This document shows, one piece after another, positions 16,457 to 44,401 of a stretch of DNA of 64,000 bases. Both the position numbers and the translations under genes were made by a program. The stretch's first letter is position 1, and each line of letters begins with the position of its first letter. The notes beneath the pieces were generated by a model. It was not told the origin of the DNA. It saw nothing but the letters and a program-made list of their open reading frames with translations, and searched no databases. Source of the DNA: Escherichia coli (GTDB lineage: Bacteria; Pseudomonadota; Gammaproteobacteria; Enterobacterales; Enterobacteriaceae); assembly GCF_013122565.1 (NCBI RefSeq), contig NZ_CP053258.1; one strand, given 5' to 3'.

Positions 16457-17149
16457 ATGCCACATCACATTGTTATTGTTGAAGATGAGCCGGTTACCCA
16501 GGCGCGATTACAATCCTACTTCACTCAGGAGGGGTATACCGTTTCCGTTACGGCGAGCGGTGCCGGGCTACGGGAAATTATGCAGAATCAGCCGGTGGAT
16601 TTAATTCTGCTGGATATCAACTTGCCCGATGAAAATGGCCTGATGTTAACCCGCGCCCTGCGAGAACGCTCAACGGTGGGGATTATTCTGGTTACCGGAC
16701 GCAGCGATCGGATTGACCGTATTGTCGGGCTGGAAATGGGCGCAGACGATTACGTCACCAAACCGCTGGAACTGCGCGAACTGGTAGTACGGGTGAAAAA
16801 TCTGCTCTGGCGAATCGACCTCGCGCGACAGGCGCAACCGCACACTCAGGACAACTGCTATCGCTTTGCGGGTTATTGCCTGAATGTGTCGCGCCATACG
16901 CTGGAGCGGGATGGCGAGCCGATTAAACTGACCCGCGCAGAGTATGAAATGTTGGTGGCATTTGTGACCAATCCGGGCGAAATTCTCAGCCGTGAACGTC
17001 TGCTGCGTATGCTCTCTGCGCGTCGGGTGGAAAACCCTGACCTGCGCACCGTCGATGTGTTAATTCGTCGTTTACGCCATAAACTCAGCGCGGATTTACT
17101 GGTGACGCAACATGGCGAAGGTTATTTCTTAGCCGCTGATGTGTGCTGA
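16457..17149 (+). CDS. torR: Response regulator TorR (OmpR family)
   Basis: 230 aa MPHHIVIVEDEPVTQARLQSYFTQEGYTVSV... Confidence 0.95.
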   Translation: MPHHIVIVEDEPVTQARLQSYFTQEGYTVSVTASGAGLREIMQNQPVDLILLDINLPDENGLMLTRALRERSTVGIILVTGRSDRIDRIVGLEMGADDYVTKPLELRELVVRVKNLLWRIDLARQAQPHTQDNCYRFAGYCLNVSRHTLERDGEPIKLTRAEYEMLVAFVTNPGEILSRERLLRMLSARRVENPDLRTVDVLIRRLRHKLSADLLVTQHGEGYFLAADVC

Positions 17150-18150
17150 TAAAAATAGACCGGACGAAATCCCCCTGGCGACAGCGAGCGGCGGATATGT
17201 TCACGGTCGGCATTTTTCGGCGTCAGAACTAAAATCGGTGGGCTGACATTATCAGACACCGGTTGCCCCTGTAATTGCCTGATGGCTTGCTCAACCGCCA
17301 GTTCCCCCTGCCAGACCATTTGATCGCTGGCAGCCATAATCACTCTTCCCCGCTTCAGCCCGCGATACACCTGATGTGAAAGATAAAACGACACCACGGT
17401 AAGCGGCGTTTTCAGGTTACGCCCTTCCCCCATTGCCGCCTCTGCCGCAATGGCCGTTCCGGCAACGACGTCGATTTCTGGATGGCGTTCCAGCATCTCC
17501 TGCAACAGGTTACGCTGGATTTCAATATCGTTATCACCAAGCGCAATATCAACAATACGCACCGGGCTTCCGGCAATGGCTGCGCGAAAACCCTCGACCA
17601 TCTCTTTACTGCCCCCGGCGTTATCGGGTCCGGGCATCAACAGCACGTTCAGTGGTTTACCGTGCGCCCATTGCACCAAATATCGCCCAGGTTGATAGCC
17701 CATCTGAAACCAGGGCACACCAACGCGGCTTTTCACCTGGGGATCATCAAGAGCATTTACCAGTTCGATCACCGGCAGATTTGCTACCTGCTTTTGCAGA
17801 TCGGGAAATGAGGTCGTGCTACTACCGAGTAAAATGGCCTCTGCGCCCCACTGTTTACACTGGTCGATTTGTGCTTGCTGGGTAGCCAACTGGCTGTAGC
17901 CGCCTGCCTCCAGCACTTTTAAATCCACACCGTAGCGGCGAGCAGCCTCCTGCATACCATAGTTCAACGATAACCAGTATGAATCTTTCAGGCTGGGATA
18001 AAGCGCGCACAGTTTCCATGCGCGTTTGGCTTTAAGCGGCATAGAGGCTTGCACCGTGAAATGCTGCGCATCATGCCAGCGCAACAGGTTATCAGCCGAA
18101 AATGCCGGCAACATGAAAAGGGAAAGAAGTAAAAATAGCAGTACGCGCAT
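17122..18150 (-). CDS. torT: Periplasmic TMAO-binding protein TorT
   Basis: 342 aa [31 protein letters not shown]...; 3' end overlaps torR 3' end. Confidence 0.94.
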
Positions 18151-22563: not shown

Positions 22564-22736
22564 GGTCAGTGCGTATTTGCAGCGCGACGTTATCAAAGGT
22601 GATCATCGTCGATTTACAAAAAATACACTTAGCGCCCAAAGGGTTTCGCTCCGTCACATCGAATGCCGATGTACGGTACTGTGAACCATGACAATATGGA
22701 CAGCGGAAATGGAGATGTTGAGTAATAACGGCAACC

Positions 22737-22949
22737 TTAGAGCGTAACAACGTTCGCTGCCGCGGGGCCACGTTGCCCCTGCTCAATAGAAAATTCAACT
22801 TTCTGATTTTCGTTCAGCGTGCGGAATTCATTGCTCTGGATGGCGGTGAAATGGACGAAAACGTCTTTGCTGCCATCATCAGGAGTGATAAAGCCAAAAC
22901 CTTTATCTGCGTTAAACCATTTTACTAAACCAGTCATTTTATTAGACAT
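22737..22949 (-). CDS. cspG: Cold shock protein CspG
   Basis: 70 aa [38 protein letters not shown]... Confidence 0.95.
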
Positions 22950-23234
22950 ATTTTACTTCCTTCATTTTGGGCCTTTCGGCAAACAGGGCTTTAATACAGA
23001 AACTACTTAGTGTTCAGGAGAGAGACTCAAAAGAAGGGGATAATGCCTGATAATGAGAACTGCTTTAGTAAACTACTTTGTATGCTGTCTGTCTTTCAAA
23101 CCGACGCAGCTATTAACGCATGATAATTGAGATTAAGCAAATTTTATTTTAGCCGTCCGGCGGTCTTAAATATCGCTGGCTTTATTTTATTAACCCCGTA
23201 TAGTGCAGCGCAGTATTTTCAGTAAGGAATTTGT

Positions 23235-23447
23235 TTGTCCCGTAAAATGACAGGAATTGTCAAAACCTTTGATCGCAAAAGCGGCAAAGGATTCATTATC
23301 CCCTCCGACGGTCGTAAAGAAGTCCAGGTCCATATTTCCGCATTCACTCCCCGCGACGCAGAAGTGCTTATACCAGGATTACGCGTGGAATTTTGTCGCG
23401 TAAATGGCCTGCGAGGACCAACAGCGGCAAATGTTTATTTGTCTTGA
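23235..23447 (+). CDS. cspH: CspA-family protein CspH
   Basis: 70 aa (TTG start) [37 protein letters not shown]... Confidence 0.88.
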
Positions 23448-36583: not shown

Positions 36584-36958
<375 letters not shown>

Positions 36959-36971
36959 TCCCTGAACAAAT

Positions 36972-37009
36972 CCCCGGAAGGTTTTTGCCTTCCGGGGATT
37001 TTTTTATTT
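36972..37009. terminator. Intrinsic terminator between convergent hspQ and yccU
   Basis: Perfect 10-bp stem CCCCGGAAGG/CCTTCCGGGG with TTTTTG loop, followed by ATTTTTTTATTT. Confidence 0.7.
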
Positions 37010-41461: not shown

Positions 41462-41479
41462 TCCACTAATATGGCCTTT

Positions 41480-43633
41480 ATGCTAAGTCCTTTGCTCAAA
41501 CGCTATACCTGGAACAGCGCCTGGCTGTATTACGCGCGTATTTTTATTGCGCTTTGTGGAACCACAGCGTTTCCGTGGTGGCTGGGTGATGTAAAACTGA
41601 CGATTCCGCTGACGCTGGGGATGGTGGCAGCGGCGCTGACCGATCTCGATGACCGACTGGCGGGACGTTTGCGTAACCTCATCATTACGCTGTTCTGCTT
41701 TTTTATCGCCTCGGCCTCAGTAGAATTGCTGTTTCCCTGGCCCTGGCTATTTGCGATTGGCTTAACGCTCTCTACCAGCGGCTTCATTTTGCTCGGCGGT
41801 CTGGGTCAACGCTATGCAACAATTGCCTTCGGTGCATTGCTGATCGCCATTTACACTATGTTGGGAACATCACTGTATGAGCACTGGTATCAGCAGCCGA
41901 TGTATCTGCTGGCCGGTGCCGTCTGGTACAACGTCCTGACACTTATTGGTCATCTGCTGTTCCCGGTCCGCCCGCTGCAGGACAACCTGGCGCGTTGCTA
42001 TGAACAACTGGCGCGTTATCTTGAGCTCAAGTCGCGCATGTTTGATCCTGATATTGAAGATGAAAGCCAGGCACCGCTGTACGATTTGGCTCTCGCCAAC
42101 GGTCAGCTGATGGCGACATTGAATCAGACGAAACTCTCGCTGCTGACCCGCTTACGTGGCGATCGTGGTCAACGGGGAACGCGTCGCACGCTGCATTATT
42201 ACTTTGTCGCACAGGATATTCACGAGCGTGCCAGCTCTTCTCATATTCAGTATCAAACATTGCGTGAACATTTTCGCCACAGCGACGTGCTGTTCCGTTT
42301 TCAGCGGCTGATGTCGATGCAGGGCCAGGCGTGCCAGCAACTGTCACGCTGTATTTTGCTGCGTCAGCCTTATCAACATGATCCGCATTTTGAGCGCGCT
42401 TTTACGCATATTGATGCTGCCCTGGAGCGGATGCGCGATAACGGCGCGCCTGCCGATTTACTCAAAACACTGGGATTTTTGCTGAACAATTTACGCGCCA
42501 TTGATGCCCAACTGGCAACAATTGAATCAGAACAGGCCCAGGCACTGCCCCATAATAATGACGAAAATGAGCTCGCTGATGACAGCCCGCACGGATTGAG
42601 TGATATCTGGCTGCGTCTTAGCCGTCACTTCACGCCGGAATCCGCCCTCTTCCGTCATGCGGTAAGAATGTCGCTGGTGTTGTGCTTCGGCTACGCCATC
42701 ATTCAAATAACCGGAATGCATCACGGGTATTGGATCTTGCTGACAAGTTTGTTTGTCTGCCAGCCAAACTATAACGCCACGCGCCACCGCCTGAAGTTAA
42801 GGATTATTGGTACGCTGGTAGGTATCGCCATTGGCATTCCTGTGCTGTGGTTTGTACCGTCACTGGAAGGGCAGCTGGTGCTACTGGTTATTACCGGCGT
42901 GCTCTTTTTTGCCTTCCGTAACGTGCAATATGCCCATGCAACGATGTTCATCACACTTTTGGTGCTACTGTGTTTTAACTTGCTGGGTGAAGGTTTTGAA
43001 GTAGCGTTACCTCGCGTAATCGATACGCTGATTGGTTGTGCCATTGCGTGGGCGGCAGTGAGCTACATCTGGCCTGACTGGAAGTTTCGCAATCTGCCGC
43101 GCATGCTCGAACGCGCCACAGAGGCCAACTGTCGCTATCTCGATGCCATACTGGAGCAATACCATCAGGGGCGTGATAACCGTCTGGCGTATCGTATTGC
43201 CCGCCGCGATGCACACAACCGTGATGCTGAACTGGCGTCGGTGGTATCAAATATGTCCAGCGAACCGAACGTTACCCCGCAAATTCGCGAAGCCGCGTTT
43301 CGGTTGCTGTGCCTTAACCATACGTTTACCAGCTATATCTCAGCCCTCGGTGCTCACCGGGAGCAGTTAACTAATCCTGAAATTCTGGCGTTTCTTGATG
43401 ACGCAGTTTGCTATGTTGATGACGCGTTACATCATCAACCTGCTGATGAAGAACGCGTCAATCAGGCATTAGCTGGCCTGAAACAGCGGATGCAGCAACT
43501 TGAACCACGGGCAGACAGCAAAGAACCTCTGGTCGTACAACAAGTTGGGTTATTGATTGCATTACTGCCAGAGATTGGTCGTCTGCAACGCCAGATTACT
43601 CAAGTTCCGCAGGAAACTCCTGTTTCGGCGTAA
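41480..43633 (+). CDS. yccS: Large inner membrane protein YccS (YccS/YhfK family)
   Basis: MLSPLLKRYTWNSAWLYYARIFIALCGTTAFPWW...; alternative ATG at 41471. Confidence 0.88.
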   Translation: MLSPLLKRYTWNSAWLYYARIFIALCGTTAFPWWLGDVKLTIPLTLGMVAAALTDLDDRLAGRLRNLIITLFCFFIASASVELLFPWPWLFAIGLTLSTSGFILLGGLGQRYATIAFGALLIAIYTMLGTSLYEHWYQQPMYLLAGAVWYNVLTLIGHLLFPVRPLQDNLARCYEQLARYLELKSRMFDPDIEDESQAPLYDLALANGQLMATLNQTKLSLLTRLRGDRGQRGTRRTLHYYFVAQDIHERASSSHIQYQTLREHFRHSDVLFRFQRLMSMQGQACQQLSRCILLRQPYQHDPHFERAFTHIDAALERMRDNGAPADLLKTLGFLLNNLRAIDAQLATIESEQAQALPHNNDENELADDSPHGLSDIWLRLSRHFTPESALFRHAVRMSLVLCFGYAIIQITGMHHGYWILLTSLFVCQPNYNATRHRLKLRIIGTLVGIAIGIPVLWFVPSLEGQLVLLVITGVLFFAFRNVQYAHATMFITLLVLLCFNLLGEGFEVALPRVIDTLIGCAIAWAAVSYIWPDWKFRNLPRMLERATEANCRYLDAILEQYHQGRDNRLAYRIARRDAHNRDAELASVVSNMSSEPNVTPQIREAAFRLLCLNHTFTSYISALGAHREQLTNPEILAFLDDAVCYVDDALHHQPADEERVNQALAGLKQRMQQLEPRADSKEPLVVQQVGLLIALLPEIGRLQRQITQVPQETPVSA

Positions 43634-44225
43634 GAGAGTCAGCCCATTCTGCAAGCTCCTGGCGGCGTGCCACCGGGAGCGCAGCTTCATGAATACCGAT
43701 AATGGCACCTTCAAGCATAAACAGAATCTTTTCTGTCACCAGACTGTTTTGCTGCCGCAGTCGCAACCAACACATTTTTGCCCCAAGTATACGTAACGCC
43801 CGTACATCCTTAATCCCCACCTCCCCGAGAATCGCTTCCAGATGAAAAGACATATTGGGCAAATCTTTCAGTCTTTCCCGGGTATTGCGCGTGCTTTTCT
43901 CTTTCAGCGCTGCATCGAGAGAATATTTCGACAGACGCACCAGCTTCAGTTGATTTCGCCATAGACTTTCATCAACCCGATAGTAATTGAGGGTAACGGA
44001 TCGGCCACACTTTTTATATGTCAGCCAGACAGGCGGATGTTTTACACAGTACTGTGCACTTTGCTCACAAGCCCGAAGATACAACTCACCATCAGAAACC
44101 ATCGCAAACACCGTGTCGTCAACGGTCAGGCTGTAACTGCCAAACAATGATCGGTATTCAATTGTGCCCAACGTTGCCAGGTATTCTTGTGATTTATAGA
44201 TCCGCTTATAGGAGAGGCTTTTCAT
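43596..44225 (-). CDS. sxy: Competence regulator Sxy/TfoX
   Basis: 209 aa MKSLSYKRIYKSQEYLATLGTIEYRSLFGSYSL...; 3' end overlaps yccS 3' end by 38 nt. Confidence 0.93.
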   Translation of the reverse strand: MKSLSYKRIYKSQEYLATLGTIEYRSLFGSYSLTVDDTVFAMVSDGELYLRACEQSAQYCVKHPPVWLTYKKCGRSVTLNYYRVDESLWRNQLKLVRLSKYSLDAALKEKSTRNTRERLKDLPNMSFHLEAILGEVGIKDVRALRILGAKMCWLRLRQQNSLVTEKILFMLEGAIIGIHEAALPVARRQELAEWADSLTPKQEFPAELE

Positions 44226-44401
44226 AAAATTCCTTTTAAAATCATAACATAAAAGAATGATTCACATTAACGGATCCGTTAACTACGAAAATAGGCAACT
44301 TATTCTTAAGGGGCAAGATTAATTTATGTTTTCCCGTCACCAACGACAAAATTTGCGAGGCTCTTTCCGAAAATAGGGTTGATCTTTGTTGTCACTGGAT
44401 G

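Follow-up and report, generated by a model that had tools for sequence, protein, structure and literature searches.

Two pairs of convergent genes on the Escherichia coli chromosome, torR/torT and yccS/sxy, share coding sequence at their 3' ends, which raises the question of where their four transcripts end and of whether such an arrangement reflects a regulatory device, a dedicated termination element, or simply the way in which the genes are packed. We followed up both junctions within a window of 64,000 nucleotides (contig NZ_CP053258.1 of the RefSeq assembly GCF_013122565.1), to which all positions below refer unless K-12 or another genome is named.

The two overlaps and the protein ends they encode

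The response regulator gene torR (230 aa) occupies positions 16457 to 17149 on the plus strand, both as an open reading frame with the Pfam domains Response_reg and Trans_reg_C and as a RefSeq gene. Facing it on the minus strand, at 17122 to 18150, is torT, an open reading frame for a periplasmic TMAO-binding protein of 342 aa (Pfam Peripla_BP_1 at residues 44 to 337). The two coding sequences have 28 nt in common (17122 to 17149, both strands), which read TTATTTCTTAGCCGCTGATGTGTGCTGA in the ORF listing and directly in the sequence. In the second pair, the gene of the FUSC-like putative transporter YccS extends from 41471 to 43633 on the plus strand (41471 is the RefSeq start, and the equivalent of the K-12 start is 41480), and sxy (tfoX; 209 aa, open reading frame with Pfam TfoX_N and TfoX_C) lies on the minus strand at 43596 to 44225, sharing 38 nt with it (43596 to 43633, both strands). 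The first-pass annotation had proposed both overlaps with these lengths and positions, and they were borne out by the ORF listing, by the sequence itself, and by the K-12 and RefSeq annotations.

The window aligns collinearly with strain PapM-32-1 (NZ_CP049204.1, positions 2886925 to 2950924), to which it is nearly identical; a single-base indel separates the two in the hspQ-yccU spacer (36958 to 37004), and the 64 kb are otherwise collinear. Its orientation is the reverse of the K-12 chromosome, where it corresponds to the region at ca. 1.0 to 1.07 Mb. Every base of the 28-nt and 38-nt overlaps is identical in K-12 MG1655, and the annotation of NC_000913.3 has the genes overlapping as in the window (torT at 1056261 to 1057289 with torR at 1057262 to 1057954, and sxy at 1021138 to 1021767 with yccS at 1021730 to 1023883). 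Both overlaps are likewise annotated in the RefSeq PGAP records of other E. coli strains, and both junction regions were found at ≥95% identity in about 5,410 to 5,425 of the 5,426 complete E. coli genomes. The wider tor regulatory region (16900 to 17400) is typically 97 to 98.8% identical to most E. coli and more divergent than the yccS-sxy region (43000 to 44400), which has ≥99% identity in 4,296 genomes; the 28-nt overlap of torR and torT is nevertheless that of K-12 despite its divergent surroundings.

All four proteins have full-length Pfam domains and hundreds of homologues. TorT has 342 aa in the E. coli homologues among the matches listed, except for one of 352 aa, and the main cluster of Sxy homologues has 209 aa. 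Thus, what characterizes a convergent overlapping protein-coding pair was found in both cases: 3' ends shared up to and including the stop codons, genuine genes, and reproducible stops.

The sequence common to torR and torT encodes residues 223 to 230 of TorR (YFLAADVC and the stop) and residues 335 to 342 of TorT (QHTSAAKK and the stop), and, as read from the sequence, the two frames place their third codon positions opposite each other. The Trans_reg_C domain ends at residue 225 of the 230 of TorR and Peripla_BP_1 at residue 337 of the 342 of TorT, and the chain in the crystal structure of Vibrio TorT stops at the equivalent of E. coli TorT residue ca. 333. The 38 nt of the second overlap specify the C-terminal 11 residues of both YccS and Sxy, in codons that lie beyond both Pfam domains, with FUSC ending at residue 685 of 720 in YccS and TfoX_C at residue 194 of 209 in Sxy. 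The alignment of a solved TfoX_C homologue reaches Sxy residue 198, the tail encoded in the overlap being further towards the C terminus, and in an alignment of 13 genera neither the sequence nor the length of the Sxy tail past residue ca. 198 was conserved. For the most part, then, the overlap codons correspond to poorly conserved C-terminal tails, at or beyond the ends of folded domains.

Convergent overlaps in the window, in E. coli, and in related genera

According to the RefSeq gene table, the window contains 13 convergent junctions, and the coding sequences overlap at five of them. The two named in the first-pass annotation are both real, but its list was incomplete. It had missed cspH/appA, with 13 nt in common at 23435 to 23447 (cspH at 23235 to 23447 on the plus strand and appA at 23435 to 24745 on the minus strand), as well as tusE/yccX and ycbX/zapC, each with 4 nt on both strands (TTAA at 35020 to 35023 for the former, and 58882 to 58885 for the latter). 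Five in 13 is somewhat above what the genome-wide rate suggests. Huvet & Stumpf (2014) counted 663 overlapping adjacent pairs in E. coli, 75 of them convergent, and convergent pairs represent about 7% of the well-characterized overlaps in the study of Palleja et al. (2008), in which artefacts dominate only among overlaps longer than 60 nt and long overlaps in databases were often misannotated through 3' extensions. The torR/torT and yccS/sxy overlaps are no statistical oddity, and a special explanation is unneeded. They resemble the convergent overlapping pairs described before (Rogozin et al. 2002; Palleja et al. 2008; Huvet & Stumpf 2014) in being protein genes on opposite strands that share their 3' ends, and the other features of that class, an overlap of less than 60 nt, an origin by movement of stop codons, and retention in related species, also fit both pairs. 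We found no difference from the class, of which they are plain members.

The third pair illustrates how such an overlap comes about. The cspH and appA genes are directly tail-to-tail in the window, in strain 042, and in 1,675 of the 5,426 complete E. coli genomes (ca. 31%). In K-12, the etk-etp-gfc capsule cluster and IS1D are located between them, and the C terminus of AppA differs; without the etk-gfc cluster, AppA ends in ...ACALHQDK and its gene 13 nt inside cspH. This polymorphism shows directly an indel creating both an overlap and a new protein tail.

Overlap at the level of transcripts is the rule among convergent operons of E. coli. According to Conway et al. (2014), 276 of 370 such operons (75%) overlap at their 3' ends, by a mean of 286 nt. 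Since this holds with or without overlapping coding sequences, what can be said of the 3' ends at torR/torT and yccS/sxy is generic. The RNA-seq catalogue ExcludonFinder 2025 names sxy-yccS, yccX-tusE, and torT-torR among 165 convergent excludons, with the listed pairs detected in at least 50% of 58 MG1655 transcriptomes, and describes a higher synteny for excludon pairs in general. Both overlaps are therefore already annotated and catalogued, and the feature is a known one.

To compare the yccS/sxy junction among relatives, we used 80 species-representative loci from the Enterobacteriaceae, following each frame strictly to its first in-frame stop; spot checks against open reading frames agreed. 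The two genes were convergent in all 80 loci and overlapping in 74. As many as 14 overlap lengths were found (4, 7, 11, 14, 16, 20, 23, 32, 35, 38, 41, 44, 47, and 80 nt), such as 38 nt in Escherichia, 41 nt in E. albertii, 14 and 23 nt in Salmonella, 11 to 47 nt in Citrobacter, 44 nt in Enterobacter, 7 nt in Kosakonia, and 4 nt in Buttiauxella. Among the six nonoverlapping loci, one has abutting stops, another a gap of 10 nt, two have gaps of ca. 250 nt and 2.3 kb, and the remaining two carry an internal stop in yccS. The latter, in frame in both cases, belong to Citrobacter amalonaticus AUH_CA_2023_1 and Enterobacter cloacae DSM 26481; they were counted as nonoverlapping and may represent a pseudogene or an assembly error. 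The tail-to-tail packing of sxy and yccS is old and persistent, with stop codons that drift. Selection for co-regulation would likewise be expected to keep the genes packed without a spacer, as they are in 74 of the 80 species. The yccS/sxy overlap had been considered the more interesting of the two, for which we found no support: relatives have lengths anywhere between 4 and 80 nt, and there is no conservation of the Sxy tail that it encodes.

The torR/torT junction was harder to follow across genera. A search with E. coli TorT had only E. coli and Shigella sequences among the matches listed, and TorT proteins from other genera were reached through the representatives of 50% clusters and a second search seeded with a relative at 62% identity. 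The overlap is 28 nt long in Citrobacter braakii and in an Enterobacter sp., and this length is thus common to three genera, Escherichia, Citrobacter, and Enterobacter. It is also 28 nt in a metagenomic lineage (L086/L087) with 62% TorT identity, in which both stops are at aligned positions and ca. 40% of the shared bases differ. Serratia fonticola has an overlap of 21 nt and Serratia liquefaciens one of 90 nt (torT at 2001 to 3119 and torR at 3030 to 3725 of that locus); in the latter species TorT is lengthened to 372 aa, apparently by loss of the usual stop. In Edwardsiella piscicida the genes are separated by a 7-nt gap, the other extreme of the junctions seen within the Enterobacterales, and next to two TorT relatives at 46 to 48% identity (L088 and L089) torR is either absent or two genes away. 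That an exact 28-nt overlap and both stops are kept at only ca. 60% TorT identity could indicate a constraint beyond inertia. The packing is old and stable and the stops wander, as would be expected if each frame simply continued, through sequence under little constraint, as far as the first stop.

A divergent tor locus was found at the same chromosomal site in E. coli 2020CK-00188 (NZ_ABACVG020000001.1, positions 4450710 to 4457950). It lacks torT, and its torR, 82.6% identical, is followed 32 nt on by torS on the same strand and then by yccM.

Transcript ends past the four stop codons

It had been proposed that there is no room for terminators between the members of either pair and that 3' ends are formed by processing or within the partner gene. 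The first point holds, as the coding sequences overlap and there is no intergenic space. Because a complete mRNA has to include its stop codon, its 3' end must lie inside the coding sequence of the partner or beyond. The second point is supported by a bicyclomycin-sensitive region of the torR strand ca. 430 nt inside torT and by the listing of both pairs as convergent transcript overlaps.

The bicyclomycin-sensitive region comes from supplementary file 2 of Adams et al. (2021), where a Rho termination region is assigned to the K-12 minus strand at position 1056830, antisense to torT. Reads upstream and downstream numbered 39 and 14 without bicyclomycin and 52 and 81 with it (Rho score of 4.34, p = 2.2e-5). 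Converted through the collinear torT alignment, the position corresponds to 17581 on the plus strand of the window, inside torT and ca. 430 nt past the torR stop, a location that is coarse given the 800-nt windows used. Many entries in the same Rho table are likewise antisense to a convergent neighbor, and at the tusE/yccX junction a Term-seq 3' end of the tusE strand was reported 86 nt inside yccX (K-12 1030252/3; Adams et al. 2021). The data of that study, with Term-seq from three growth conditions, contain no 3' ends for sxy, yccS, or torT and no Rho entries for those strands, and no Term-seq 3' end is listed in the stretches of about 150 nt around the torR/torT and yccS/sxy junctions.

A scan of base composition gave candidate Rho loading regions on two of the four strands. 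One is located at 17250 to 17370 (plus strand; C 35 to 42%, G 16 to 21%), 100 to 220 nt past the torR stop and antisense to torT, and the other at 43694 to 43873 (plus strand; C 29 to 40%, G 14 to 16%), 60 to 240 nt past the yccS stop and antisense to sxy. The C-rich and G-poor signature was weak past the torT stop and absent past that of sxy (C 26%, G 26%), where the RNA is not C-rich and Rho termination is therefore less obviously favored. Taken together, the published data demonstrate termination inside the partner for the torR strand, and we infer it for torT, yccS, and sxy. The likeness to Rho-dependent antisense termination as reported by Adams et al. (2021) is accordingly firm for torR, whose readthrough into torT rises with bicyclomycin, and only for torR; for the other three strands such termination is suggested by composition or unsupported.

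The junctions were also searched for terminators and structured RNAs. A consensus scan found no terminator near either junction and no excess over shuffled sequences. A hairpin followed by a U-tract was absent within 600 nt 3' of all four stops, with only weak, noncanonical candidates in a lenient RNAfold scan, and intrinsic terminators inside the partner genes were rejected on the strength of the two scans. Folds of 100 nt at the junctions were no more stable than shuffles on either strand (z-scores of -0.05 to -1.33), no inverted repeat of ≥6 nt was found spanning either overlap, and no Rfam family matched at either junction; on these grounds we rejected the presence of structured RNAs, or of members of a known RNA family, at these points. 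There is a small 5-bp palindrome, CAGGA/TCCTG, inside the sxy/yccS overlap. The sole Rfam matches in the window were a cspA-type thermoregulator upstream of cspG (22683 to 23105, minus strand), the PyrD leader (60603 to 60676, minus strand), and a tRNA-Ser (33650 to 33734, plus strand). Neither junction showed signs of a special element.

Tight packing as the likely explanation, its alternatives, and their meaning

Both overlaps are most likely ordinary tail-to-tail overlaps that result from tight gene packing, with mRNAs that end inside the neighboring gene chiefly through Rho. The ends of the functional cores of the proteins would be only several bases, or at most some tens of bases, apart, with neither a spacer nor an intrinsic terminator between them, and each frame would run on to the first in-frame stop that it meets, inside the short and weakly constrained tail of the partner. 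Past that stop, the transcript would continue untranslated and antisense to the partner gene, ending there heterogeneously and, most likely, mainly in a Rho-dependent manner once the ribosomes are gone. Untranslated antisense readthrough is reportedly a target of Rho-dependent termination. The overlap of sense and antisense at the mRNA 3' ends would then be a by-product common to most convergent operons of E. coli. Any interference is probably small, since torR, torT, yccS, and sxy are weakly expressed under standard conditions.

The readthrough might instead be functional, antisense interference being, as in the first-pass annotation, a potential of both junctions and no more. As convergent excludons, the antisense transcripts would lower the expression of the partner, through collisions between RNA polymerases or through an mRNA duplex that RNase III cleaves. 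The expression of torR and that of torT, or that of yccFS and of sxy, would then exclude each other or be held at a set ratio. We consider this unlikely. Both pairs, together with yccX-tusE, do appear in the E. coli excludome in at least half of the transcriptomes, but where coding sequences overlap, co-expression alone is by definition enough for an excludon call, and the listing adds no regulatory evidence; most convergent operons overlap anyway. Transcription of the torR strand reaches hundreds of nucleotides into torT before the Rho stop, and according to the literature TorT is kept very low and the TorS:TorT ratio controls the noisy expression of torCAD. Against a frequent encounter of the two transcripts, no abundant 3' ends were called near the junctions by Term-seq in three conditions, which points to low transcription and thus to rare collisions or duplexes. 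The conservation of gene order and tight packing across genera agrees with the generally greater synteny of excludon pairs, and lineages with only about 60% TorT identity still have the exact 28-nt arrangement; nonetheless, the overlaps vary freely in length and sequence.

There is a tested precedent in E. coli, arfA/mscL, whereas we found no functional study of either of our pairs in the literature. As in our two pairs, the mscL and arfA genes are tail-to-tail in the Enterobacteriaceae, with the mRNA 3' end complementary to the 3' coding sequence of the partner. They differ in having a measured effect, as deletion of arfA raises mscL mRNA more than twofold. Convergent excludons (Conway et al. 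2014; ExcludonFinder 2025) are defined, in the strict sense, by a regulatory effect, mutually exclusive expression or RNase III processing, which for torR/torT and yccS/sxy would be hypothetical.

A more specific version of the same idea, which we regard as improbable, would have torR transcription, autoregulated by TorR, read at least 430 nt into torT and help to set the low and noisy level of TorT, with the yccFS antisense acting as an extra brake on Sxy. If this were true, the torR/torT overlap would be tied to bet-hedging in torCAD expression through the TorS:TorT ratio, and a working torR/torT excludon would explain why the exact 28-nt arrangement persists at ca. 60% TorT identity.

Much less credible is a collision-driven, overlapping bidirectional terminator of the class detected by SEnd-seq, in which a shared hairpin element pauses RNA polymerase from both sides, and head-on and trailing collisions release both transcripts with sharp 3' ends. 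Such terminators are reported to occur commonly where E. coli genes converge and to require neither Rho nor a canonical terminator (Ju, Li & Liu 2019; Wang et al. 2022, a preprint); both our pairs are alike in being convergent and in lacking canonical intrinsic terminator features. The 5-bp palindrome in the sxy/yccS overlap is in favor of such an element, but the junctions fold no better than shuffles and neither overlap is crossed by an inverted repeat of 6 nt or more, which leaves the shared hairpin without a counterpart. Nor do sharp ends appear: in the published Term-seq data, limited to three growth conditions, there are none within about 150 nt, and the readthrough of the torR strand is sensitive to bicyclomycin and ends far downstream. 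The mechanism is reported to be most effective where expression of the pair is high, unlike that of torR/torT and yccS/sxy, and both pairs depart from the class in having no hairpin, no paired sharp 3' ends, and, for torR, a Rho-dependent strand.

Finally, an annotation or sequence artefact, by which one ORF in each pair would end earlier and the coding sequences would not truly overlap, is suggested by the frequency of misannotated 3' extensions among long overlaps in databases, but a stop codon, unlike a start codon, is fixed by the sequence, and this explanation is effectively refuted by the recurrence of the same stops in K-12 and thousands of complete genomes, by the uniform protein lengths (TorT of 342 aa with one of 352 aa among the matches listed, and 209 aa in the main Sxy cluster), by overlaps of 28 and 38 nt, well short of the 60 nt beyond which artefacts become dominant, and by their recurrence in other genera.

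Tight packing with Rho-dependent ends thus accounts best for both junctions, and the cautious interpretation given to them in the first-pass annotation is correct but generic. The overlaps matter little beyond bookkeeping and are part of the reference annotation. In practice, a deletion or tag at the 3' end of either gene also disrupts the other; published torT-lacZ strains, for example, carry a torR deletion as well. For the cell, no member of either pair can have a terminator of its own between the two genes, and each mRNA ends inside the neighbor, at a place probably set by Rho. If antisense coupling between the partners were true, it would add an extra layer to TMAO sensing or to the control of Sxy, as one more example of a known mechanism.
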